A stretch of DNA of 64,000 nucleotides from an uncultured Methanosarcinales archaeon. GTDB lineage: Archaea; Nanobdellota; Nanobdellia; Woesearchaeales; UBA12501. Positions 4,948 to 63,064 of the stretch are shown here, one piece after another (position 1 is the stretch's first letter; each line of letters opens with the position of its first letter). The notes under the pieces are model-generated. The model saw nothing but the letters and a program-made list of their open reading frames with translations, was not told the origin of the DNA and ran no database searches. The position numbers and the translations under genes were made by a program. The stretch covers positions 48,711-112,710 of the forward strand of contig CAYWPA010000002.1 in NCBI GenBank assembly GCA_964459835.1, read 5' to 3'.

Positions 4948-5445
4948 TTAAATCAATTTTTTTATTTTAATATTGCTTATCATCAGCAGCGAAGATATTA
5001 AATAAATTATCGGGTAGATCGTTACAGGAGTGCGCAAAAAATAAACAAGAGGGATTATTATCCCGTTAAAAGTAATTGGCATTCCTATGTATTCTTTTAT
5101 GTTTAGTGTATTGAACCTTGCCAGCCTTAATACTCCGCATGCAATAAAAAATATCCATACAGGTATGAACATGATTGTTTCGGAGCTTATAATAAAGGCA
5201 AAAACTGCCGGGGAAATGCCAAATGAAACCAAGTCAGCCAGAGAGTCAAGCTGCTTTCCGAACAAATGAGTTGTGCCTTTTCTTGCAACCTTTCCGTCAA
5301 GGTAGTCAAACAGTACAGACAAAAGCATAAATCCTGCTGCAAGGTTAAGCAGATGAAGGACTGAAAAAAATATTGAAAAGCTTCCTGAAATAACATTAAG
5401 CAGTGTTACATAATCCTGTTTTTTTAGCAGTTTTTTGAAGTTCAT
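4948..5445 (-). CDS. pssA: CDP-alcohol phosphatidyltransferase, archaetidylserine synthase-like
   Basis: DYLDGKVARKG...G..LDSLADLVSFG equals the D-x2-DG-x2-AR...G-x3-D-x3-D motif. Its start overlaps psd (ATGA). Confidence 0.65.
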   Translation of the reverse strand: MNFKKLLKKQDYVTLLNVISGSFSIFFSVLHLLNLAAGFMLLSVLFDYLDGKVARKGTTHLFGKQLDSLADLVSFGISPAVFAFIISSETIMFIPVWIFFIACGVLRLARFNTLNIKEYIGMPITFNGIIIPLVYFLRTPVTIYPIIYLISSLLMISNIKIKKLI

Positions 5446-6077
5446 TCCGCAATCACAGTTTCGCCATCCACCACGTAATCCCCTTCTTTTACTTTTATTC
5501 CGAAACTGTCAGGAAGTATTACGCTTACCTGGCTTCCCAGCTTTATTATGCCTATAGTCTGCCCCTTTTTAATGTTTTGGTTTTTTCTGGCAAAGCATTC
5601 TATCCTGTTTGCCACAAGACCTGCTATCTGAATTATCTTTATTCTGCCTTTTTTTGTTTCCAGGAGTATCTCATTGTTCTCATTTTCAAGAGCTGCTCTC
5701 ATATTTCTTGCGCCAAGAACAGCATTGTGCAGCTTTCCTTTATTGTATTTGATATTCAGCACTTTTCCATCCGCCGGAGATCTCTGGTAATGCACATTCA
5801 GCGGGTTCATTACTATGTTTATCAGGTAGCCTTTTTTTATAGTATCTTTTGTCTGTAAATTTATCTTTCCAAGCATGCCTTTCTTTATTTCAACATTGCT
5901 ATCACCAACCGTTAGGACCCTTGCAACCTTTCCGTTTGCAGGAGAGACAATGCCTTTTATTGGCGTGTTTCTTTTTGGATTTCTTAAGAAAACTATTCTG
6001 TAAAACACTGCAAACAAGATTATTATTGTTGCTATTGCAGACAGCGTTATCTGAATTATTTGTGCTATTTGAACCAT
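5442..6077 (-). CDS. psd: phosphatidylserine (archaetidylserine) decarboxylase proenzyme
   Basis: PSD-like fold with an LGSQVSV self-cleavage-type (G-S) motif near the C-terminus. Operonic with pssA. Confidence 0.65.
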   Translation of the reverse strand: MVQIAQIIQITLSAIATIIILFAVFYRIVFLRNPKRNTPIKGIVSPANGKVARVLTVGDSNVEIKKGMLGKINLQTKDTIKKGYLINIVMNPLNVHYQRSPADGKVLNIKYNKGKLHNAVLGARNMRAALENENNEILLETKKGRIKIIQIAGLVANRIECFARKNQNIKKGQTIGIIKLGSQVSVILPDSFGIKVKEGDYVVDGETVIAE

Positions 6078-6162
6078 GATATGCTAAAAAAGAAATCATT
6101 TTATAAAGTTAACTAATGGTTAAGCGGCAAAATATATAAATCTTTGATATTTTAGCTTTTGC

Positions 6163-6756
6163 ATGACTGAATTTTATATAGTAAGGCACGGGAAAACAGA
6201 GTTCAATAAAGAAAAAAAGCTGCAGGGGCATCTTGATTCTCCGTTGCTGGAAAGAAGTGTTGAAGATATTAAAAAAATTGCTGAAAAACTGTCTGATGTT
6301 GGTTTTGATGTTATAATCAGCAGCGACTTGGGAAGGGCTGTGGAAACTGCCAAGATAGTAAAAAAAGAATTGGCAAAAAAGGAAATAAACAAAAACATAA
6401 AGCTAAAGGCTGCAAAAGAGCTTAGGGAAATTGATTTTGGGGATTTAGACGGCAAAAAGATACCTCATGTTCTAAAAGAGTATTTAAAATTAAAAACAAA
6501 TATACACCATAAAGCTCCGAACGGGGAAAGCTACAAGCAGCTTTATGACAGGGTTATTAAGCATATTAAAAGGCTTGAGGGAAAATATGAAAAAGTGCTT
6601 ATTGTCACGCATTCAGGCTGTATAAGGGCTTTATACTCTTTTTTCAGCAATAAAAGCTATAAAGCAAAAGTTATGATGCCTATGAGCAACAACATAATAA
6701 TGTACGCAAAGCTTGGGAAAGGCAGGCCAAAAGGCTTTGAATTGATACAGAAATAG
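6163..6756 (+). CDS. histidine phosphatase family protein (phosphoglycerate mutase-like)
   Basis: N-terminal RHGKTEFN (RHG catalytic motif) and a downstream THSG motif. Confidence 0.65.
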   Translation: MTEFYIVRHGKTEFNKEKKLQGHLDSPLLERSVEDIKKIAEKLSDVGFDVIISSDLGRAVETAKIVKKELAKKEINKNIKLKAAKELREIDFGDLDGKKIPHVLKEYLKLKTNIHHKAPNGESYKQLYDRVIKHIKRLEGKYEKVLIVTHSGCIRALYSFFSNKSYKAKVMMPMSNNIIMYAKLGKGRPKGFELIQK

Positions 6757-6770
6757 TTAAACAAAAATAT

Positions 6771-6974
6771 TTACTTCATCCTGACAAGCATTTCAATAAC
6801 AGAATCTCCAAACTCCTGCTTGATTGACTTTATCTTTGGCTCTGCAAGCACATGCTGTTTGTGCTGCGAGCATTCTTTCTTGTCTTCCCAATAGAAAAAG
6901 CACTTTTCCTTAAAATTCTCCCAGTTTGAACAATCCTTGCAAAGCTCGTTTCCTGCCATAATACCATTGAGCAA
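6771..6974 (-). CDS. small Cys-rich hypothetical protein (67 aa)
   Basis: ORF with CxxC/CxxxC residues and no known family. Confidence 0.3.
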   Translation of the reverse strand: MLNGIMAGNELCKDCSNWENFKEKCFFYWEDKKECSQHKQHVLAEPKIKSIKQEFGDSVIEMLVRMK

Positions 6975-7008
6975 GAAATCTATTTAAATCTTTCTGCTTT
7001 ACGATACT

Positions 7009-7146
7009 GTCAAGTTAAGTGCCAATGCTGCCAAGCAACGGTTTCGTCCATTGACACCGAGATTAGTGCAGGATTTCACTGCGTTCAATCCTGCTCCATA
7101 AGCGAACAGAGCGCGGCATTGGCATGAGACACGCTACTTGACTTAA
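7009..7146 (-). repeat. hairpin repeat element copy A (inverted orientation, 12-bp internal insertion)
   Basis: Termini GTCAAGTTAAGTGCCAATGCTGCC ... GCGCGGCATTGGCA..CTTGAC match copies B-D in reverse complement. Confidence 0.7.
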
Positions 7147-7196
7147 CCCTACCTTACGAAAACTATATAAATAAATTAGAAGCTTTTCTCCTTAAT

Positions 7197-7269
7197 GCCT
7201 CCGTAGCTTAGCAGGTAGAGCATTCGGCTGTTAACCGAAAGGTCGCCAGTTCGAGTCTGGCCGGAGGCG
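7197..7269 (+). tRNA. tRNA-Asn (GTT)
   Basis: Cloverleaf: acceptor GCCTCCG/CGGAGGC, D arm GCTT..GAGC, anticodon loop CTGTTAA, T loop TTCGAGT. Confidence 0.85.
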
Positions 7270-7282
7270 TTTTAGCTATAAC

Positions 7283-7434
7283 GGGCCCGTAGCTTAGCCT
7301 GGTGGAGCACACGACTGATAAACATTAAGCCGGGATTCTCTACGGAGGATGACGGCATTGAGAACCAAAATTCTCAATCCAAGGCTTGAAGTTCATAGAT
7401 CGTGAGGTCGGGAGTTCAAATCTCCTCGGGCCCA
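7283..7434 (+). tRNA. tRNA-Ile (GAT) with ~78-nt intron at position 37/38
   Basis: Acceptor GGGCCCG/CGGGCCC+A. Anticodon stem CACGA/TCGTG is separated by 7321..7398. Anticodon loop CTGATAA, T loop TTCAAAT. Confidence 0.75.
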
Positions 7435-7458
7435 TTCCTATTTCCACTATTCTTAAAA

Positions 7459-9015
7459 ATGGCAAAAAAACAAATAGAGCAAAAGTTTAGCAATGATGTT
7501 GTTAATCTTGCTTTTGATACAATAAGCCTTGGGAAGCAGGCCTTGGTTTTTCTAAATACAAAGCGCTCTGCAGAAAAAGCTGCTGAAGACATAAGCTTAA
7601 AGATAAAAGAAGGCAGCGCTGAAACAGAGGAGCTTTCAAATAAAATTCTAAAAGCATTATCAAGGCCGACATCGCAATGCGAAAGACTTGCAAGGTGTGT
7701 GAAGAAAGGCATAGCATTCCATCATGCTGGATTGGTGCAGAAGCAGAAAGAGATGATTGAAGATGCATTCAAGCAAAATAAGATTAAGATTATCTGCTGC
7801 ACCCCTACCCTTGCAGCCGGCGTTGATTTGCCTGCATTCAGGTCAATAATAAGAGACCTTAAAAGATACGGGCACAGGGGATTAGACTGGATTCCTGTTC
7901 TGGAGTACGAGCAGATGTCTGGAAGGGCCGGAAGGCCGAAGTATGATACATTCGGAGAGGCAATATGCATAGCAGGCCAGGAAAACGAGAAGGAAAGGAT
8001 AGTTGAAAGGTATATTGAAGGAGAGCCTGAAGAGATTTACTCTAAGCTGGCAGTAGAGCCAGTATTGAGAATGTATATCTTATCTTTAGTTGCAAGTGAG
8101 TTTGTAACGACAAAAAAGCAGCTTCTTGATTTCTTTAAAAAGACCTTCTGGGCGTACCAGTATGAAGATATTGAAAAATTGGAAGGAATAATAGATAAGA
8201 TGATAAATCTGCTTTCTGGATACAAATTTATTGAAGCAGATGAGAAAGAGTTTGCTTCTGCAAATGAAATAGGAAAAGAAAGCCTAAAAGCCACGCTGCT
8301 CGGGCAGAGGATTGCGCAGCTTTACATTGACCCATTGACAGCACACAATATTTTAAATGCATTGAAAAGGTCTTCTTCAAAGCAGGTAAATGAATTTTCT
8401 TTTTTGCAGATGGTCTCATATACTTTGGAATTGCGTCCGTTGCTGAGAATAAAAGTAAGGGAATACGACACTATTGAAAACGAGTTTACAAAGTTTGAGA
8501 GCAATTTAATAACACTTGAGCCTTCTTTGTACGATCCTGAGCATGACGAGTTTTTTGATTCTGTGAAGACTGCCTTGTTTTTCCATGACTGGATAGATGA
8601 AAATGATGAAGAGTTTCTTCTGAAGAAATATGATGTAAGGCCAGGTGAGATAAGGGTGAAGCTTGAAAGGGCTGAATGGCTGCTGTATGCTGCCGAGGAG
8701 ATGGCAAAGCTGCAGAAGATGCACAGCATAGTAAAAGAAATAATGAAAACAAGATTCAGGCTAAGGTATGGTGTAAGGGAAGAGCTGCTTACTCTGCTAA
8801 GGCTGGAAGGCATTGGAAGGGTAAGGGCAAGAAAGCTTTACAATCACAAGATAAAAGATATTGGAGATGTAAAAAAGGCAGATGTTTCTGTTTTGGCGCA
8901 GCTTCTTGGAAAGAACGTCGCAATAAAGGTAAAAAAGCAGGTTGGAGAGGATATAGAAAAGCTGAAAGTCCCTGAAAGAAAAAGAAAAGGGCAGCTCAGC
9001 CTGGGTGGCTACTGA
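7459..9015 (+). CDS. hel308: Hel308/Ski2-like DNA helicase, C-terminal portion only (RecA2-WH-ratchet-HhH); RecA1/Walker half absent
   Basis: Begins ~25 aa before motif IV (LVFLNTKRS). Motif V TPTLAAGVDLPA, motif VI MSGRAGRP, and a C-terminal HhH (GIGRVRARKLY) follow. No Walker A/DExH upstream, where the tRNA genes abut. Start set at the first ATG after tRNA-Ile. Confidence 0.8.
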   Translation: MAKKQIEQKFSNDVVNLAFDTISLGKQALVFLNTKRSAEKAAEDISLKIKEGSAETEELSNKILKALSRPTSQCERLARCVKKGIAFHHAGLVQKQKEMIEDAFKQNKIKIICCTPTLAAGVDLPAFRSIIRDLKRYGHRGLDWIPVLEYEQMSGRAGRPKYDTFGEAICIAGQENEKERIVERYIEGEPEEIYSKLAVEPVLRMYILSLVASEFVTTKKQLLDFFKKTFWAYQYEDIEKLEGIIDKMINLLSGYKFIEADEKEFASANEIGKESLKATLLGQRIAQLYIDPLTAHNILNALKRSSSKQVNEFSFLQMVSYTLELRPLLRIKVREYDTIENEFTKFESNLITLEPSLYDPEHDEFFDSVKTALFFHDWIDENDEEFLLKKYDVRPGEIRVKLERAEWLLYAAEEMAKLQKMHSIVKEIMKTRFRLRYGVREELLTLLRLEGIGRVRARKLYNHKIKDIGDVKKADVSVLAQLLGKNVAIKVKKQVGEDIEKLKVPERKRKGQLSLGGY

Positions 9016-9659
9016 TGCAGGAGATAATAACAAAAGACAATTCTCCAACAATAATGTCTTTGGAGTATTCTGAACCATACCGTTCCATTTCCGGAGCAAT
9101 GGAGGAATCTTTCAAGAAGTTTATAGGCCCGTGCAGGATAAAAGAATTTAAGGATGAAGTAAGTATTTTAGACATTGGCTTTGGCTTAGGCTATAATGTA
9201 TGCGCAGCTGTAGATGCTGTTTTGGAAGCAAATCCAAAATGCAATTTAGTTGTTTTTTCATTGGAAAAAGATAAAGAAATATTAAAAAAACTACAAAACC
9301 TAAATCCAGCTTTTAAAAATTACAATATGATAAAAGGGCTGGCAAAAAATCTTGAGTATAGAAAAGGCAATATAAATTTAAAGATTATTCTTGGCAATGC
9401 AACAGAAACAATAAAAAAAATAAATACAGATTTTGATGCAGTGTTTCTTGACCCTTTCTCCCCTCCGAAAAACCCTGAGTTATGGACAGAGGAATTTCTT
9501 AACGAGGTTGCCAAAAGAATGAAGAAAAGCGGGATTTTGGCGACCTACAGCTGCGCCAGGATAGTGAGGGAGAACATGAAAAAAGCAGGCCTTATGCCAG
9601 AGGACGGTCCATCCGTCGGAAGAAGGGCCCCTTCTACAATAGCAAGAAAAGCTTTATAA
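9015..9659 (+). CDS. MnmC/MnmD-like SAM-dependent tRNA methyltransferase (DUF752)
   Basis: DIGFGLGYN (SAM site) and FLDPFSPPKNPELWT...ILATYSCARIV..G closely parallel E. coli MnmC, DGFAPAKNPDMWT...LATFTSAGFVRRGL. Confidence 0.65.
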   Translation: MQEIITKDNSPTIMSLEYSEPYRSISGAMEESFKKFIGPCRIKEFKDEVSILDIGFGLGYNVCAAVDAVLEANPKCNLVVFSLEKDKEILKKLQNLNPAFKNYNMIKGLAKNLEYRKGNINLKIILGNATETIKKINTDFDAVFLDPFSPPKNPELWTEEFLNEVAKRMKKSGILATYSCARIVRENMKKAGLMPEDGPSVGRRAPSTIARKAL

Positions 9660-9660
9660 A
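9639..9660 (+). repeat. 22-bp direct repeat, left copy (ATAGCAAGAAAAGCTTTATAAA), includes the stop codon of the mnmC-like gene
   Basis: Perfect 22/22 match with 10651..10672. Confidence 0.85.
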
Positions 9661-9683
9661 ATATCAGAATATTAATAGTTAGT

Positions 9684-10550
9684 ATGAAGTTGAATTATAT
9701 TTCCCTATTGGCAATTTTGTTAATTGGTATGGTTTTTCTAAGCAGTTGTATGTCACAAGAATCACCAACAAAAGCTCCGACTACCACTCAACCATCTGAC
9801 ACTCCAGAAACAACACAACAAGAAACAACATCACAACAGCCAGATAAAGTTATTGACAAAGGAGACTTTAAAGTTGTATACGATTCGGTAGAAAACCCAG
9901 ATTTTATTGAATTAGAAAAAGTGCTTAAAGAATCAAAATTATTTGAAGAGGTAACAAACGAACTTAATAATAATTTTGCTTTACCTTATGATATTCTTGT
10001 TGTTTTTGAAGAATGCGGAGAAGAAAATGCGTTTTACGATTCGAATACTAAACAAATAACAATGTGTTATGAACTGATGGGTTACTTTGCCAAAGTATTT
10101 TATGATTATTCTGAAGATGATAATGACTTGGGAACGGCAATGCTAAATAGCATGTTTTTTGCATTCTATCATGAAGTTGGTCACATGATGGTTGATATAT
10201 ATGATTTACCTGCTACAGGCAATTCTGAAGATAATGCTGATCAAGTATCTACATTAATTCTTTTGAGTGACGAGGCTGATGGAGTAAGTACACTTTTGAA
10301 TGGGGCCAATTGGTTCTTTATAAAATCTGAAGAATCGGATATTGAAGAATCTATATTTTCAGACATTCACTCTCCCGATAAAAGGAGGTATTATAATCTC
10401 TTATGTTGGATTTATGGTAGTGACCCTGAAAACGGAGAATACATAATTACAGAATGGGAACTTCCAGAAGAAAGGGCTATTGGATGTGAAGAAGAATATA
10501 ATCAAATGTCTAATAGCTGGGATCGTTTGCTTTCTCCTTATTTCAAATGA
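9684..10550 (+). CDS. secreted/lipoprotein putative zinc metallopeptidase (HEVGH; DUF4344-like)
   Basis: Signal peptide with an LSSC lipobox, a T/Q/P-rich linker and an HEVGHMM HExxH motif. More AT-rich than its flanks and bracketed by the 22-bp direct repeats. Confidence 0.55.
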   Translation: MKLNYISLLAILLIGMVFLSSCMSQESPTKAPTTTQPSDTPETTQQETTSQQPDKVIDKGDFKVVYDSVENPDFIELEKVLKESKLFEEVTNELNNNFALPYDILVVFEECGEENAFYDSNTKQITMCYELMGYFAKVFYDYSEDDNDLGTAMLNSMFFAFYHEVGHMMVDIYDLPATGNSEDNADQVSTLILLSDEADGVSTLLNGANWFFIKSEESDIEESIFSDIHSPDKRRYYNLLCWIYGSDPENGEYIITEWELPEERAIGCEEEYNQMSNSWDRLLSPYFK

Positions 10551-10650
10551 ACCTATTCTTAAATTTGGCGGCAGCTCTCCATTATCAGCTTTATATGCAG
10601 TTATAGAGCCTCGCAAAACTGATGCTAACCTTTATTCTGGACAGAGCCTT

Positions 10651-10672
10651 ATAGCAAGAAAAGCTTTATAAA
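10651..10672 (+). repeat. 22-bp direct repeat, right copy
   Basis: Perfect repeat of 9639..9660. It creates a short ORF tail ...IARKAL* that duplicates the mnmC-like C-terminus. Confidence 0.85.
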
Positions 10673-10694
10673 CCTAGGGCAAGAGATATATACT

Positions 10695-11606
10695 ATGCAA
10701 GACAGGATCTTTTTTGAAAAGCCGGACTTGAACCTTCTCACAAAGCACTTTTCATGCGTGGATATGCACTTTCATACCAAGTATTCTGACACTTATACAA
10801 AAGTCCCCAATATAATAAAAAAAGCAGCAAAGAAAGGAGTAGGGGTTGCCATAACAGATCACAACGGAATAAATGGAAGCATAGAGGCATACAATAATAA
10901 GAAAGGCGTTATGGTTGTTCCTGCAATAGAGATTTCTGCAAAACAGGGCCCGCATATATTATTTTATTTTTACAGCATGAAAGAGCTGCAGGAGTTCTAT
11001 GAAAAAAAGATAAAGGATTTCAAGTCAAGAGCTCCCTACATGGCCACAAAGCTGACTGCAGAAGAAATTCTTGAAAGGGCTGAAGGATATAACTGCATAA
11101 GCTCTGCAGCACACCCTTCTTCAATAGGGCATTGGGACTTAAGGGCAAAGGTGGAAAAGGGAGAGATAAGCAGGGATGTTCTGAAAAAACTTGACTGCTT
11201 TGAGATGTTTAATGGCATGATGTCCAGGAAGATGAATGAGGAGTCCACAAGATGGGGTGTTGATCTTGGGAAGGGAATGACAGCAGGAAGCGACGGTCAC
11301 ACTCTGTTCTGCCTTGGAAGGACTGTATGCTACTCTGAAAGTGAAGGGGTAGACGGGTTCTTAGATGCCATAAGTAAGAAAAAGAACTATGCTATTGGAA
11401 AGGTTGCAAAGATAGGAAGCAGGGCATTGACTTACTCAAAGAACTTCGGAAAGCACTCTGTTTACGCAGGGCCTGCAATAGTCATACATTACAATCTTTA
11501 TATGAAAAACAACGTCGACAGGATGAAAGGAAAAATAAAAGAGAAAAGGGATGTTGTAGCGAACAATATAAAAGAAAATTTCTCCAGGATGAAAGGCAAG
11601 GTATGA
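10695..11606 (+). CDS. PHP-domain metal-dependent phosphoesterase
   Basis: DMHFHTKYSD...ITDHN His/Asp motifs of the PHP family. Stop overlaps the next gene start. Confidence 0.65.
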   Translation: MQDRIFFEKPDLNLLTKHFSCVDMHFHTKYSDTYTKVPNIIKKAAKKGVGVAITDHNGINGSIEAYNNKKGVMVVPAIEISAKQGPHILFYFYSMKELQEFYEKKIKDFKSRAPYMATKLTAEEILERAEGYNCISSAAHPSSIGHWDLRAKVEKGEISRDVLKKLDCFEMFNGMMSRKMNEESTRWGVDLGKGMTAGSDGHTLFCLGRTVCYSESEGVDGFLDAISKKKNYAIGKVAKIGSRALTYSKNFGKHSVYAGPAIVIHYNLYMKNNVDRMKGKIKEKRDVVANNIKENFSRMKGKV

Positions 11607-13405: not shown

Positions 13406-13996
13406 TCAATCCAATCTTGCTCTTCTTATATATTCCACTTCAGCATCAACTGTCAAATCAATTAAGCCTCTGAAAAACTTTCTTATGAACTCAGGCTTGT
13501 GCAGCTTATATCTTTCAGCAAGCCTTACAGCATCCTCTATGACTTGTTTTTCTCTTTCCGGAGAAACCAATGTTTTCCTTATTTCAGCATCGGATAGATT
13601 TATCATTTCTTGGTTTTGCTGTAATTTTGATTCTGCAATCAGTCTGCCAATTCCTATTACCCTTTCATTGTACAGCATTACATTGTTCACATCGCACTTT
13701 GCTGTTTTCCCGTATGCTTCTCGCTCTTCTCCTTTCTCACAAAATTCTGGAAGCATAGCCCTGTAAAACTGAATTATCCTCTCACCAATATCAATTCTCA
13801 TTTTTCTTCTTTTTTGTTCTGTAAACAGCCTGTAATCAAACCATGTTTTTCCATTTGTAACTTCTTCTGTAAAGACACCTTTATTTAGCTTGTACCTATA
13901 CCTGTCTTTAAGGCCGCTGATTATGTTTGCTGTCATTTGGTCTATTCTAACTCTTAAATCTGAAATATCTATTGCCATACAAAACACATATCTCAA
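13406..13996 (-). CDS. chorismate mutase (AroQ)-like protein with a long insertion
   Basis: N-terminal LRVRIDQM helix and C-terminal SPEREKQVIEDAVRL...FIRKFFRGLIDL resemble AroQ helices. Assignment tentative. Confidence 0.35.
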   Translation of the reverse strand: MRYVFCMAIDISDLRVRIDQMTANIISGLKDRYRYKLNKGVFTEEVTNGKTWFDYRLFTEQKRRKMRIDIGERIIQFYRAMLPEFCEKGEEREAYGKTAKCDVNNVMLYNERVIGIGRLIAESKLQQNQEMINLSDAEIRKTLVSPEREKQVIEDAVRLAERYKLHKPEFIRKFFRGLIDLTVDAEVEYIRRARLD

Positions 13997-14093
13997 ATTT
14001 GTTTATAAAACTTTTCATAAAATAACTACTAAAAGGTTTAAACATAGAGTGCTCCAATAAATTTAAAAACACTTAACAAATACCATCTCTAAA

Positions 14094-16376: not shown

Positions 16377-16428
16377 ACAGCTTTGGTAAGAAACATGCTT
16401 TAAAAATTTTGCCACAAAACAAAGCATG

Positions 16429-16553
16429 GTCAACCTAAGCGCCAATGCCGCGCTCTGTTCGTATTTGGTTTTTGCTCTCGTAACCTATTATGTTTCGCAA
16501 TCGCTTCCTTTGTTTTGGCACGGCGCTTGGCGGCATTGGCGTCTTTCTTATCT
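16429..16553 (+). repeat. hairpin repeat element copy B
   Basis: GTCAACCTAAGCGCCAATGCCGCGCTCTGTTCG ... GGCGCTTGGCGGCATTGGCG with inverted termini. Sits in the divergent lig/nitroreductase intergenic region. Confidence 0.7.
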
Positions 16554-18391: not shown

Positions 18392-18434
18392 AGCTTCAAA
18401 AAGTGTGCCATAAAAACAAGAAATATATCTCTTA

Positions 18435-18475
18435 TTTATTTTCTATATAGAAAATAATTAAAATCATAAAAACCG
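18435..18475. promoter_or_regulatory. conserved palindromic upstream motif, copy 1 (TTTATTTTCTATATAGAAAATAATTAAAA)
   Basis: Near-identical to 40018-40052, 44463-44498 and 59067-59100. A TATA-like TTTATATA lies ~20 bp downstream of the motif. Confidence 0.55.
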
Positions 18476-32153: not shown

Positions 32154-32215
32154 TTCATATCACTGTAATTATATACTGTTATTTCAACTATAACAATGTT
32201 TCTATCCAAGGGTGC

Positions 32216-32344
32216 TGCCAACTTAAGTGCCAATGCTGCGCTCTGTTCGCTTCTTCATTTCTTTTTCGCATTCGAGGAACTCTCGCAATTGCTTCACCAT
32301 TTGAGCACGCCGCTTGGCAGCATTGGCACCTTGCTTGGCTTGAC
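32216..32344 (+). repeat. hairpin repeat element copy C
   Basis: TGCCAACTTAAGTGCCAATGCTGCGCTCTGTTCG ... CCGCTTGGCAGCATTGGCACCTTGCTTGGCTTGAC. Abuts the stop codon of 32346..34370. Confidence 0.7.
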
Positions 32345-39932: not shown

Positions 39933-40017
39933 AACAGTTTGGATTTTGAGATGGTTTATAAAGCTTATTGCCTTGGTTAAGTCTAACGACTGTTGCTAAA
40001 AGTCTAACGACGGCCAC

Positions 40018-40052
40018 TAATTATTTTCCATATAGAAAAAAATTAAAACGGC
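40018..40052. promoter_or_regulatory. conserved palindromic upstream motif, copy 2 (TTATTTTCCATATAGAAAAAAATTAAAA)
   Basis: Upstream of rpl35ae (minus strand). TATA-like TTTATAAA at 39946-39956. Two 12-bp direct repeats AAGTCTAACGAC lie at 39979-40011. Confidence 0.5.
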
Positions 40053-44418: not shown

Positions 44419-44462
44419 TCTCTATTTCTCATAATTGATTGGCTGTTTGTTATTTTTTATAT

Positions 44463-44498
44463 TTATCTTCCATATAGAAAATAATTAAATAAAAAATC
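44463..44498. promoter_or_regulatory. conserved palindromic upstream motif, copy 3 (TTTATCTTCCATATAGAAAATAATTAAATAAAA)
   Basis: Lies between the lon stop and the gyrB start. TATA-like TTTATATA ~60 bp upstream of the gyrB ATG. Confidence 0.5.
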
Positions 44499-44566: not shown

Positions 44567-47803
<3,237 letters not shown>

Positions 47804-49839: not shown

Positions 49840-49911
49840 TCCTGCATCTAACCAACAGCCTTTTTTAAATTTAATGAAAACTTTTATAAATAAACAGGCT
49901 TATCCCAAAGT

Positions 49912-50853
49912 ATGCTTAAGGTTTATGTAAAAAGGGGTGTCAAGGTAGAAGAAGGCTCTATTTCTGCAATTAAATCAAAAGGCGTTGTCTGGATAGACGC
50001 TTTAAACCCAACAGCAGAAGAGCTTGACAAGCTAAAAAACGAAACAAACATCCCTTTAAATCTTCTTAAAATTTACACAGATGAATCTGTTCGCGCACAT
50101 GTAATCAAGTATGAAAAGTTTGCAAATATCATATTTGCCGCTCCTTATGAGGGCATTGCGAAAAAAACAACACCTATCATAATTTTTACATTTGGAAACA
50201 ATAATATTTTAACATTAAGAACAAAAGATGTTGATTCTATAGCTTCATTCAAAAAAAGAATAAAAGAAGAAGGCACTATTTCTTTTGACTCTCCATCAAC
50301 ATTCCTTCATACTTTTTTGGATGAGATTGTTTCAAACTATTTTAAAGTGTTTGATGATATCGAAGAGAAGATCGAGGATGTTGAGCATATAGTTTTAAAA
50401 AAGCCGACAAAAAGCAACCTTGAAAAAATATTTGAAGTTAAAAAATCGCTGATTTTCCTGCATAAGGCTTTAAGTGCAAACAGGGAGGCAATAACAAGCA
50501 TTGAAAAAGGATTTGTAAAAAAACTATCCCTGGCAGATTCGCGGTATTTTAGGGATTTATACCAGGATATTGTGCAGCTTATTGATATAGAGGAAACTTA
50601 CAGGGATATATTGACCGGTGTTATAGACATACACCTATCTTCAATTTCAAACAACATAAACGACGTCATGAGAAAGCTTACTGTTTATGGTTCTTTTGTC
50701 CTGGTCCCGACTCTAATATCCAGCATATACGGCATGAACTTTCATTTCATGCCTGAAATACCATGGAAGTACGGCTATACATTTGCGCTTTCTATCATGG
50801 TTATTTCTATAACTCTGCTTTATATTTACTTTAAGAATAAAGAATGGATATAA
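49912..50853 (+). CDS. corA: CorA-family Mg2+/Co2+ transporter
   Basis: C-terminal two TM helices with a YGMNF (GMN) motif. Confidence 0.75.
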   Translation: MLKVYVKRGVKVEEGSISAIKSKGVVWIDALNPTAEELDKLKNETNIPLNLLKIYTDESVRAHVIKYEKFANIIFAAPYEGIAKKTTPIIIFTFGNNNILTLRTKDVDSIASFKKRIKEEGTISFDSPSTFLHTFLDEIVSNYFKVFDDIEEKIEDVEHIVLKKPTKSNLEKIFEVKKSLIFLHKALSANREAITSIEKGFVKKLSLADSRYFRDLYQDIVQLIDIEETYRDILTGVIDIHLSSISNNINDVMRKLTVYGSFVLVPTLISSIYGMNFHFMPEIPWKYGYTFALSIMVISITLLYIYFKNKEWI

Positions 50854-58997: not shown

Positions 58998-59066
58998 GTT
59001 TTGCAGGATTTAGAAGTAGTATTTAAAGGTTATTGCCATAGGGCATTGAAAATATTAAATTAATCT

Positions 59067-59100
59067 TAATTATTTTCTATATGGAAAATAAATAGTAAAA
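59067..59100. promoter_or_regulatory. conserved palindromic upstream motif, copy 4 (TAATTATTTTCTATATGGAAAATAAATAG)
   Basis: Lies 70-100 bp upstream of the rpl11 ATG. A separate TATA (RC of AGTAGTATTTAAAGG at 59013-59030) sits at about -25. Confidence 0.5.
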
Positions 59101-62299: not shown

Positions 62300-62405
62300 C
62301 GGATTGTTGTTCTTGTTTTACCTTCAACTAGCTCATGATTTTAAGCATAGAAGAATATATACAGGGTTTTGCAGTAGTATTTAAAGCTTTTGCTTCTTAT
62401 GCAAT

Positions 62406-62528
62406 GTCAACCTAAGTGCCAATGCTGCGCTTTGTACGCTTCTGTCTTTGTTCTCGCAATCAAGGCACTTTCGCAATCGCTTCCTGTTATAAGGCACGGC
62501 GCTTGGCAGCATTGGCACCTTTCTTGAC
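62406..62528 (+). repeat. hairpin repeat element copy D
   Basis: GTCAACCTAAGTGCCAATGCTGCGCTTTGTACG ... GGCGCTTGGCAGCATTGGCACCTTTCTTGAC. Ends exactly at the cmk stop codon. Confidence 0.7.
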
Positions 62529-63064
62529 TATATATGTTTCTTCACTGCTTTCAAAACCTCTTGTATTTCCTCTTCTATTGTTAGGTTTGTTGTGTCAATA
62601 ACATAATCATAATTTGACTTGTCGTAATGGTTAACATTATAGTATTCTTTATACCTTTTCATTTCTGACTTTATCCTTTCTGCAAGCTTGTTTACCATAT
62701 CCTGCCTTGTAAAAGCCTCTTCGTCATTTCTTCCCTGGTTTAATATTCTCTGCGCTCCTACTTCCAAATCAACATCCAGGAATATTTTTATTGATTTTGG
62801 AATAAAATGAAATCCCAGCCTGGAATCAATCACAAAATTATCCTCTCTTTCTCCAAGCCTTTTCTGCCGTTTGTCAACCTCAATGTCTATGCTTTTGTCC
62901 TGCTCCTCAAGCTCATTCAGCTCTGCCAGCGTGAGCCCTTTCTCCTCTGCAATCTCCCTTTGAAAATCACCCATAGAATAATGCTTCATGCCTAATCTAT
63001 TAGCCACTTCCTTTGCAACAGTGCTTTTTCCTGAGCCAGGCGCTCCGCCTATTGTTATTATCAT
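62528..63064 (-). CDS. cmk: cytidylate kinase, archaeal type (P-loop NMP kinase)
   Basis: MIITIGGAPGSGKSTVAKEVA, ~178 aa. Confidence 0.6.
   Translation of the reverse strand: MIITIGGAPGSGKSTVAKEVANRLGMKHYSMGDFQREIAEEKGLTLAELNELEEQDKSIDIEVDKRQKRLGEREDNFVIDSRLGFHFIPKSIKIFLDVDLEVGAQRILNQGRNDEEAFTRQDMVNKLAERIKSEMKRYKEYYNVNHYDKSNYDYVIDTTNLTIEEEIQEVLKAVKKHI

Follow-up and report, generated by a model that had tools for sequence, protein, structure and literature searches.

How can a gene be added between two closely spaced genes without damage to either of them? The genomes of DPANN archaea are extremely compact, with predicted promoters sitting, at the locus considered here, in the last codons of the upstream gene, and an insertion between such genes would normally disrupt either the reading frame of the upstream gene or the promoter of the downstream one. 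The locus lies in a stretch of 64,000 nucleotides (nt), hereafter the window, of contig CAYWPA010000002.1 (assembly GCA_964459835.1, positions 48,711 to 112,710 of the forward strand), which was deposited as an uncultured Methanosarcinales archaeon and is placed in the Woesearchaeales (UBA12501) by GTDB, the names of MnmC and PHP relatives indicating a Woesearchaeota-like DPANN archaeon. There, a gene coding for a putative DUF4344 zinc metallopeptidase is found between mnmC, which codes for an MnmC/MnmD-like S-adenosylmethionine (SAM) methyltransferase, and a gene coding for a PHP-domain phosphoesterase, and is bracketed by two exact copies of a 22-nt sequence. An earlier reading of the same DNA, referred to below as the original prediction, proposed a site-specific insertion with duplication of a target or attachment (att) site. 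We conclude that 990 nt were probably inserted at this locus in a lineage-specific event, and that the accompanying 22-nt duplication of the target copied a stop codon and a predicted promoter. The case is a clear gene gain, but no evidence speaks for a novel kind of mobile element. We class it as insertion with target duplication in an unusual form, which is represented by one instance and is of an ordinary kind apart from the unusual length of the duplication.

The 22-nt repeat and its predicted promoter content

The 22-mer ATAGCAAGAAAAGCTTTATAAA occurs twice in the window, at 9639–9660 and 10651–10672, exactly as the original prediction had it. It is the longest exact close-range direct repeat of the 64 kb; no further match with up to 3 mismatches is present on either strand of the window, and none arose in 100 shuffles of the window sequence. 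The features of the locus are the following:

9015–9659, + strand: gene coding for the MnmC/MnmD-like SAM methyltransferase (PF05430, E = 2e-33), whose last codons carry the predicted promoter of the next gene
9639–9660, + strand: repeat copy 1, i.e., the codons for IARKAL, the stop codon and 1 nt; native 3′ end of mnmC
9648–9660, + strand: BRE/TATA consensus AAAGCTTTATAAA, putative DUF4344 promoter, ending 23 nt before the ATG (9684)
9661–10650, + strand: probable inserted segment of 990 nt, made up of a 23-nt spacer, the DUF4344 gene and a 100-nt tail
9684–10550, + strand: gene coding for the DUF4344 putative zinc metallopeptidase (PF14247, E = 1.5e-70)
10551–10650, + strand: 100-nt tail that probably arrived as part of the insert; without significant similarity to mnmC, PHP, other parts of the window or the 96 fetched loci of the comparison set
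10651–10672, + strand: repeat copy 2, exact 22-mer and probable duplicated target; ends no recognised gene
10660–10672, + strand: BRE/TATA consensus, putative PHP promoter, ending 22 nt before the ATG (10695)
10695–11606, + strand: gene coding for the PHP-domain phosphoesterase (PF02811 and PF13263), probable ancestral downstream neighbour of mnmC

Copy 1 is considered the native end of mnmC because homologues of MnmC share a C-terminus made of ...GRRAPSTIA followed by 1 to 8 variable residues (19/19), which agrees, as does the PF05430 match, with the earlier placement of this copy at the 3′ end of an MnmC-like gene. The original prediction counted seven codons plus the stop codon in the repeat; there are in fact six (IARKAL), followed by the stop codon and one base. 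The sequence located 5′ of copy 2 has no significant similarity to mnmC in local alignments compared with shuffles. The identity between the two copies has a sharp edge on both sides, and the insert boundaries pass from TATAAA to ATATCAG on the left and from GAGCCTT to ATAGCAA on the right.

The promoter grammar of this genome was surveyed in the upstream regions of the 66 window open reading frames (ORFs) of at least 90 aa. It consists of a purine-rich element followed by an AT-rich box, i.e., a candidate recognition element for transcription factor B (BRE) and TATA box, with the consensus AAAGCTTTATAAA ending 21–24 nt before the ATG. The best match to this consensus with at most 4 mismatches, found in 39 genes, lies at a gap of 21–24 nt in 21/39, a share to be compared with about 8% expected under uniform position, and the three exact copies present in the window all end 22–24 nt before an ATG (3/3; DUF4344, PHP and RpoL genes). 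No GGAGG-like Shine-Dalgarno sequence precedes the ATG of the DUF4344 gene or that of the PHP gene. The archaeal TATA box is centred about 26–27 nt upstream of the transcription start; with the spacing seen here, transcription would therefore start at or next to the ATG and yield leaderless mRNAs. Leaderless mRNAs constitute the majority class in several archaea (PMC4983044). Judged by position, the two copies look like promoters, copy 1 of the peptidase gene and copy 2 of the PHP gene, and TTTATAAA is predicted to be the promoter element behind starts within a few nt of 9684 and 10695. Copy 2, which the original prediction described as an orphan tail, would thus be better read as the PHP promoter, with a BRE/TATA at the canonical distance. 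The main functional point, that the repeat is for the most part a predicted BRE/TATA promoter, had been missed.

Since 13 of the 22 nt correspond to the BRE/TATA promoter consensus of the genome, a naive chance estimate for a 22-mer overstates the surprise. The other 9 nt (ATAGCAAGA) belong to the coding sequence of mnmC and are identical at 9/9 positions, the sole such pair among 276 TATA-aligned promoter pairs. The second-best pair (13979–14014, − strand; 49876–49911, + strand) is unlinked and precedes the genes at 13406–13978 (−) and 49912–50853 (+); its members have 20/22 nt in common (ATTTWATGAAAASTTTTATAAA), including 8/9 upstream nt, and may reflect chance in AT-rich sequence or a common upstream element.

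The DUF4344 gene and the mnmC-PHP layout of relatives

The 990-nt insert holds a single ORF, and the original prediction rightly described it as an AT-richer, DUF4344-like gene. Its product matches PF14247 with 237.8 bits (cut-off 29.6) over profile positions 1–220 of 220. Across 35 homologues, H163, G166 and H167 of the HEVGH motif (residues 163–167) are invariant and E164 nearly so, and a further invariant His and four invariant or near-invariant Cys are found. The N-terminus is predicted to comprise a helix, a lipobox-like L-S-S-C and a disordered Thr/Pro/Gln linker; SGC lipoboxes also occur in DUF4344 homologues of other DPANN contigs. The AlphaFold model shows one domain predicted with confidence and has an overall predicted local distance difference test (pLDDT) score of 87, with low confidence over the N-terminal 60 residues including the linker, and no related solved structure was found in the PDB by sequence or by Foldseek. 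The protein fits an extracellular, disulfide-bonded zinc peptidase, its activity being a Pfam-level prediction. The sole functional context found in the literature is the listing of DUF4344 among the domains of Xanthomonas-type type IV secretion system (T4SS) effectors (PMC6536674).

Both composition and similarity pattern make the peptidase gene look foreign. Its GC content is 0.333 vs. a gene mean of 0.381, its GC content at third codon positions (GC3) is 0.232 vs. 0.354 (standard deviation 0.063), the third lowest of 66 genes, and its codon-usage distance ranks 3/45; the original prediction had called for a comparison of GC content and codon usage. The best non-self matches of the gene, at 64–71% protein identity and 79–81% DNA identity over 440–540 nt, are located in DPANN contigs, and the gene is nearer its database relatives than mnmC or PHP are to theirs (59% identity for the closest non-self relative of MnmC, 47–48% for PHP). 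In the other DPANN contigs the homologues stand in unrelated neighborhoods. Those of two DPANN contig families (L003–L008, approximately 5001–6164; L011, 4135–4213) have a conserved upstream region, ...AACGTCACYTARAAYMRTTTAGAAAGGTYTTTATRTTTGTTT..., that the window copy lacks, and the window gene is therefore without that upstream regulatory region. Contigs L003 and L007 are 99.9% identical and differ in gene calls only, and L004 diverges after position 6819; strain variation beside DUF4344 in L003–L008 was considered as a source of evidence and rejected as not informative.

Two relatives, L095 and L096, have mnmC followed by PHP with gaps of 14 and 11 nt, respectively, L096 also having the same C-terminal-half helicase gene upstream. 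In both, a TATA-like AT-rich box lies within the last mnmC codons and ends 22–23 nt before the PHP ATG. Excision of 9661–10672 in silico gives the window the same design, ...ACAATAGCAAGAAAAGCTTTATAA-A-22 nt-ATG, and an unoccupied allele of the locus would read ...CCTTCTACAATAGCAAGAAAAGCTTTATAAACCTAGGGCAAG. Among 84 mnmC-homologue loci, PHP is found near mnmC in L095 and L096 only and DUF4344 in none (0/84, of which 59 have at least 1 kb downstream). The comparison with an empty site envisaged by the original prediction was therefore successful for gene order, mnmC-PHP being found in these two relatives, and unsuccessful at the sequence level, where no empty site was found. A search of genome contigs with MnmC returned a single match, in Bdellovibrio, at 27% identity, and exact-protein look-ups for the locus returned matches from the same sample only. 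In one metagenomic relative, L062, the mnmC homologue (612–1271) is itself bracketed by a direct repeat of about 80 nt with a hairpin (338–419 and 1287–1368).

Origin of the probable insertion

The events that we favor would have started from the order mnmC-PHP, with the BRE/TATA promoter of PHP lying inside the last codons and stop of mnmC and a leaderless PHP mRNA. A piece of foreign DNA of 990 nt, whose donor was probably another DPANN archaeon, would have entered the junction, bringing one DUF4344 lipoprotein-type metallopeptidase gene and 100 nt of 3′ sequence, and 22 nt of the junction target would have ended up on both sides of it. Since the duplicated stretch includes both the stop codon of mnmC and the promoter, mnmC would be left intact and PHP would keep its promoter at 22 nt; because it holds the promoter, the new gene would stand 23 nt from a consensus TATA box and would probably be transcribed from there. 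Selection would keep a product only if mnmC, PHP and the inserted gene all remained functional in it. As to the mechanism, repair-mediated capture of a fragment at a staggered break is preferred with low confidence, a dedicated mobile element being less likely. The left join may have formed with the help of homology between the promoter of the recipient and that of the donor gene itself, which is suggested by the insert starting exactly at the end of the TATA box. A simple promoter-promoter crossover would leave the 9 other duplicated bases unexplained, hence the tentative preference for repair capture. The direction of the event, the promoter activity and the enzymology are what we infer. An insertion with target duplication, as originally predicted, is supported by the mnmC-PHP layout of relatives, the atypical composition of the gene and its similarity pattern. 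Moreover, an independent Logan contig (L001; run ERR3478686, k=31) is identical to window positions 7292–10141; as this k is larger than the 22-nt repeat, the contig shows the left junction to be physically real.

Several points weigh against this account. With 13 of 22 nt being promoter consensus, 9 nt alone carry independent evidence of duplication. What serves as the empty site is a conserved gene order at 52–57% MnmC identity and not a sequence-level empty site. Among the available relatives none is close enough to share the 22-mer, and the two closest MnmC relatives (58–59%) have other downstream neighbors. Precise deletion between such repeats in the relatives would give the same picture. 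The compositional deviation of the DUF4344 gene, about 2 standard deviations, is not extreme, the right junction has a single source, the source assembly itself, and the promoter activity is read from position. Finally, a 22-nt duplication exceeds most transposase footprints, and neither an enzyme nor a donor was found.

The tail offers a few hints as to the donor. Homology of the tail and of the 5′ spacer to the window and the 96 loci is restricted to chance 10–14-mers, and a decayed mnmC 3′ end or PHP copy was rejected as the origin of the tail, local alignment scores being within the shuffle range. The tail holds a weak promoter-like TCAGCTTTATATG with an ATG 24 nt further on (10585–10624; background 0.04 per 100 nt); this ATG opens a 10-codon ORF, MLTFILDRAL plus stop (within 10585–10654). 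The frame that ends with IARKAL and the stop codon at copy 2 is open over 63 codons (10480–10671). Both could be weak hints of a coding or promoter fragment of the donor in the tail. The motif and its ATG, in particular, could represent the beginning, cut short, of the gene that came next in the donor, which would fit the capture of a random chromosomal fragment.

Signatures of known mobile elements were searched for in the insert, the window and the comparison set, and 674 kb of DPANN loci plus the window were scanned for similar repeat-bracketed insertions. The locus has a 22-nt exact direct repeat, as expected of a target-site duplication (TSD) albeit of atypical length, and its direct repeats restore the 3′ end of the target gene like att sites, copy 1 completing mnmC with the conserved ...STIA. 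Terminal inverted repeats (TIRs) are absent from the insert ends (ATATCAGAATATT... and ...TTCTGGACAGAGCCTT), which have in common only a subterminal 7-mer (CAGAATA/TATTCTG) at unequal offsets. The original prediction noted that no integrase is present; this is true of the cassette, and neither an integrase nor a transposase nor Cas1 was detected anywhere in the 64-kb window, with no recombinase Pfam match among the 66 ORFs and no PolB. No second copy of the cassette or of the 22-mer was found in the window, the 96 loci or IMG/VR. The search in viral contigs that had been suggested thus came back empty for the 22-mer; IMG/VR also holds no close DUF4344 relative, a profile search giving one relative at 31%, and DUF4344 is essentially absent from viral contigs. 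No flanking repeats of at least 12 nt surround the DUF4344 homologues of L003–L011, and no comparable repeat-bracketed insertion with promoter or gene-tail character was found in the scanned 674 kb and window. With no hairpin or inverted-repeat site in addition, the site-specific, att-type part of the original prediction finds no support. Three candidate origins were rejected or set aside. An attC or other structured recombination site at 10545–10680 is at odds with a DNA fold weaker than that of shuffles (minimum free energy −6.9 kcal/mol, z = +2.28) and with the lack of a local inverted repeat in the tail. A Xer/dif-type site would have dif-like arms, which are missing on inspection of the 22-mer, its sole palindrome being 8 bp long (AAAGCTTT). 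A retro-copy akin to target-primed reverse transcription would not begin 23 nt before the ATG but at the start of a leaderless transcript, and no reverse transcriptase is encoded in the window.

Comparison with known systems leads to the same mixed picture. Islets and other integrative elements of tyrosine integrases are likewise flanked by direct repeats that include the 3′ end of a conserved gene and leave this gene intact; here, however, the element has no integrase gene and none was detected in the 64 kb, the insert comprises 990 nt and one cargo gene, no other copies were found, and the repeat is mostly predicted promoter. Casposons combine a Cas1 casposase, a family-B polymerase and TIRs with a TSD of about 14–15 bp. 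Like these elements, insertion sequences (ISs) and transposons duplicate their target around unique DNA, whereas the present insert has no TIRs, no transposase or Cas1 and a single copy, and nearly all known TSDs are shorter than 22 nt. Integron cassettes, which have been reported in metagenome-assembled genomes (MAGs) of Nanoarchaeota and other DPANN lineages (Ghaly et al. 2022, PMC9668308), are also single-ORF units of about 1 kb, co-oriented with their neighbors and without a recombinase of their own. Unlike them, the insert has no attC hairpin, neither of its boundaries has a GTTRRRY core, and no cassette array or IntI is present, the neighbors being mnmC, PHP, lipid-synthesis genes and DNA ligase. 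Moreover, the insert sits behind a predicted promoter, unlike most integron cassettes, and has a 22-nt direct repeat on its flanks, which integron recombination does not generate.

The PeSL promoter-terminator cassettes and mini-circles of T4-type phages consist of promoter-containing repeats flanking single accessory genes (Arbiol et al. 2010, PMC2839356), and their recombination is proposed to move one gene together with one promoter copy (PMC2839356). The likeness lies in the short promoter-containing repeats around a single accessory gene. PeSLs, however, exist in many copies, have stem-loop terminators and populate hyperplastic regions of phage genomes, whereas only two repeat copies without a stem-loop are found here at a core chromosomal site, with 9 nt of identity beyond the consensus that a simple promoter-promoter crossover leaves unexplained. 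Homology-facilitated illegitimate recombination is a process known from bacteria, in which recipient sequence is usually lost rather than duplicated. It has been documented for foreign DNA in competent bacteria and in E. coli conjugation (PMC3240628). Small foreign fragments are integrated through a short stretch of homology that anchors one end, the other end being joined illegitimately, and the left end of the insert coincides with the edge of the shared promoter motif; a 13-nt anchor is very short for this process. In sum, the outcome is like that of an att-flanked islet or a TSD-flanked transposon, and as a single expressed accessory gene the locus is similar to an integron cassette or PeSL unit; it fails the defining tests of each.

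These comparisons bear on the rival explanations. The locus could represent a non-autonomous single-gene cassette, i.e., a 1012-bp circle using the 22-mer as attP and integrated in the Campbell manner into an identical attB at the end of mnmC by a recombinase encoded elsewhere in the genome. An excised circle or tandem copy would then show ...GGACAGAGCCTTATAGCAAGAAAAGCTTTATAAAATATCAGAATA, with GAGCCTT-ATAGCAAGAAAAGCTTTATAAA-ATATCAG as the junction of the circle. Such a cassette would explain why the 3′ end of a conserved gene is restored by exact direct repeats that flank a single gene, and would agree with the varied contexts of DUF4344 in DPANN contigs; the IARKAL frame, open for 63 codons 5′ of copy 2, would fit a donor in which tail and 22-mer were contiguous. 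We nevertheless regard it as unlikely, in view of the failure to find a second copy of cassette or 22-mer (window, 96 loci, IMG/VR), flanking repeats of at least 12 nt around homologues elsewhere, a recombinase in the 64 kb, or inverted arms or a hairpin in the 22-mer, more than half of the supposed att being promoter consensus. It is equally conceivable that there was no insertion at all: mnmC-DUF4344-PHP would be an old order that the relatives never had or from which they lost DUF4344, and the 22-nt identity would come from later short-tract gene conversion between adjacent promoters that had the 13-nt consensus in common beforehand. That 13 of the 22 nt are consensus anyway and that an unlinked promoter pair shares 8/9 upstream nt lends this some credit, but the 9/9 match spans mnmC coding sequence with no known promoter role and is the sole such pair among the 276. 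The 11–14 nt between mnmC and PHP in two relatives, the unusual composition of DUF4344 and its unusual similarity to distant contigs, and the sharp edge of identity on both sides also make conversion improbable.

An assembly artefact, either a cassette threaded in through a shared short repeat or a chimeric contig, draws on the right junction, which has no independent assembly support, and on the Logan contigs, which break at 10141 and 11320. It is very unlikely, since a k=31 contig spans the left junction and mnmC, repeat and cassette are thus contiguous, typical final assembly k values exceed 22 nt, and both promoter spacings look functional. A chance similarity of two consensus promoters would account for 13 nt, but not for the remaining 9 nt being identical at 9/9 positions (a probability of roughly 5e-5 for each pair at this base composition, estimated from promoter-pair counts), for the lack of any other match in the window or in shuffles when 3 mismatches are allowed, or for the adjacency of two copies that exactly bracket one atypical gene, and is exceedingly improbable. 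An insertion with duplication of the stop-plus-promoter block is the explanation that we retain.

Read in this manner, the locus illustrates one way to add a gene without damage: with the stop-plus-promoter block duplicated, the newcomer would be expressed at once and the neighbor would keep its promoter. It provides a signature that can be searched for in archaeal MAGs, i.e., a direct repeat of gene tail, stop codon and BRE/TATA with 21–24 nt between each copy and an ATG, a promoter consensus, open to testing, for an uncultivated lineage, and a dated example of the exchange of a secreted-peptidase gene among DPANN archaea. By itself it reveals no new class of mobile element, and a single instance does not demonstrate mobility. 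It seems quite unlikely that DPANN archaea have a so far unrecognised route of gene gain, in which single genes would travel as promoter-associated units, be inserted at promoter/stop junctions by a host enzyme or one acting in trans and generate a duplication of about 22 nt. If true, such insertions would be self-expressing and harmless to their neighbors, a functional parallel to integron cassettes and PeSL mini-circles without attC or an element-borne recombinase.

Neighborhood and other elements of the window

The window around the locus is core chromosome, with genes for lipid synthesis, DNA ligase, PGK, GAPDH, RpoL, IMPDH, GyrB, LysRS, FtsZ and L11. Immediately upstream of mnmC, the gene at 7459–9015 (+) codes for the C-terminal half alone of a Hel308-like helicase (Helicase_C, HTH_61, domain 4 and HhH), without the N-terminal DEAD/RecA1 domain; the N-terminal half is not encoded in the 64-kb window. 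The same 522-aa half-gene occurs in relative L096 (2023–3591), and it looks like a helicase gene that is split in this clade. Between the helicase gene and a tRNA-Asn gene (7196–7270) lies a second tRNA gene with an intron of about 80 nt (7283–7434, +; Rfam RF00005, 50.7 bits), which ARAGORN missed.

Two families of intergenic repeats are dispersed in the window. An element of about 140 nt is present in four copies (6995–7140, 16428–16553, 32188–32340 and 62377–62529), with conserved terminal inverted repeats of about 28 nt (GTCAACYTAAGTGCCAATGCTGC ... GCAGCATTGGCACCTTTCTTGAC) and a variable interior. Its consensus fold keeps a long stem with few compensatory changes and has no Rfam match; it is either similar to miniature inverted-repeat transposable elements or a structured RNA. 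The palindromic motif TTATTTTCYATATRGAAAATAAT, also in four copies (18424–18462, 40009–40047, 44451–44489 and 59058–59096), could be bound by a regulator or act as a bidirectional terminator. An intein (PF14890, residues 431–854) interrupts the gene for DNA gyrase B (44633–47803, +). This gene has an exact 19-mer in common with the PHP gene (44890–44908 in gyrB and 10916–10934 in PHP), which codes in frame for VPAIEI in both genes; the similarity ends sharply on either side and is probably due to chance.

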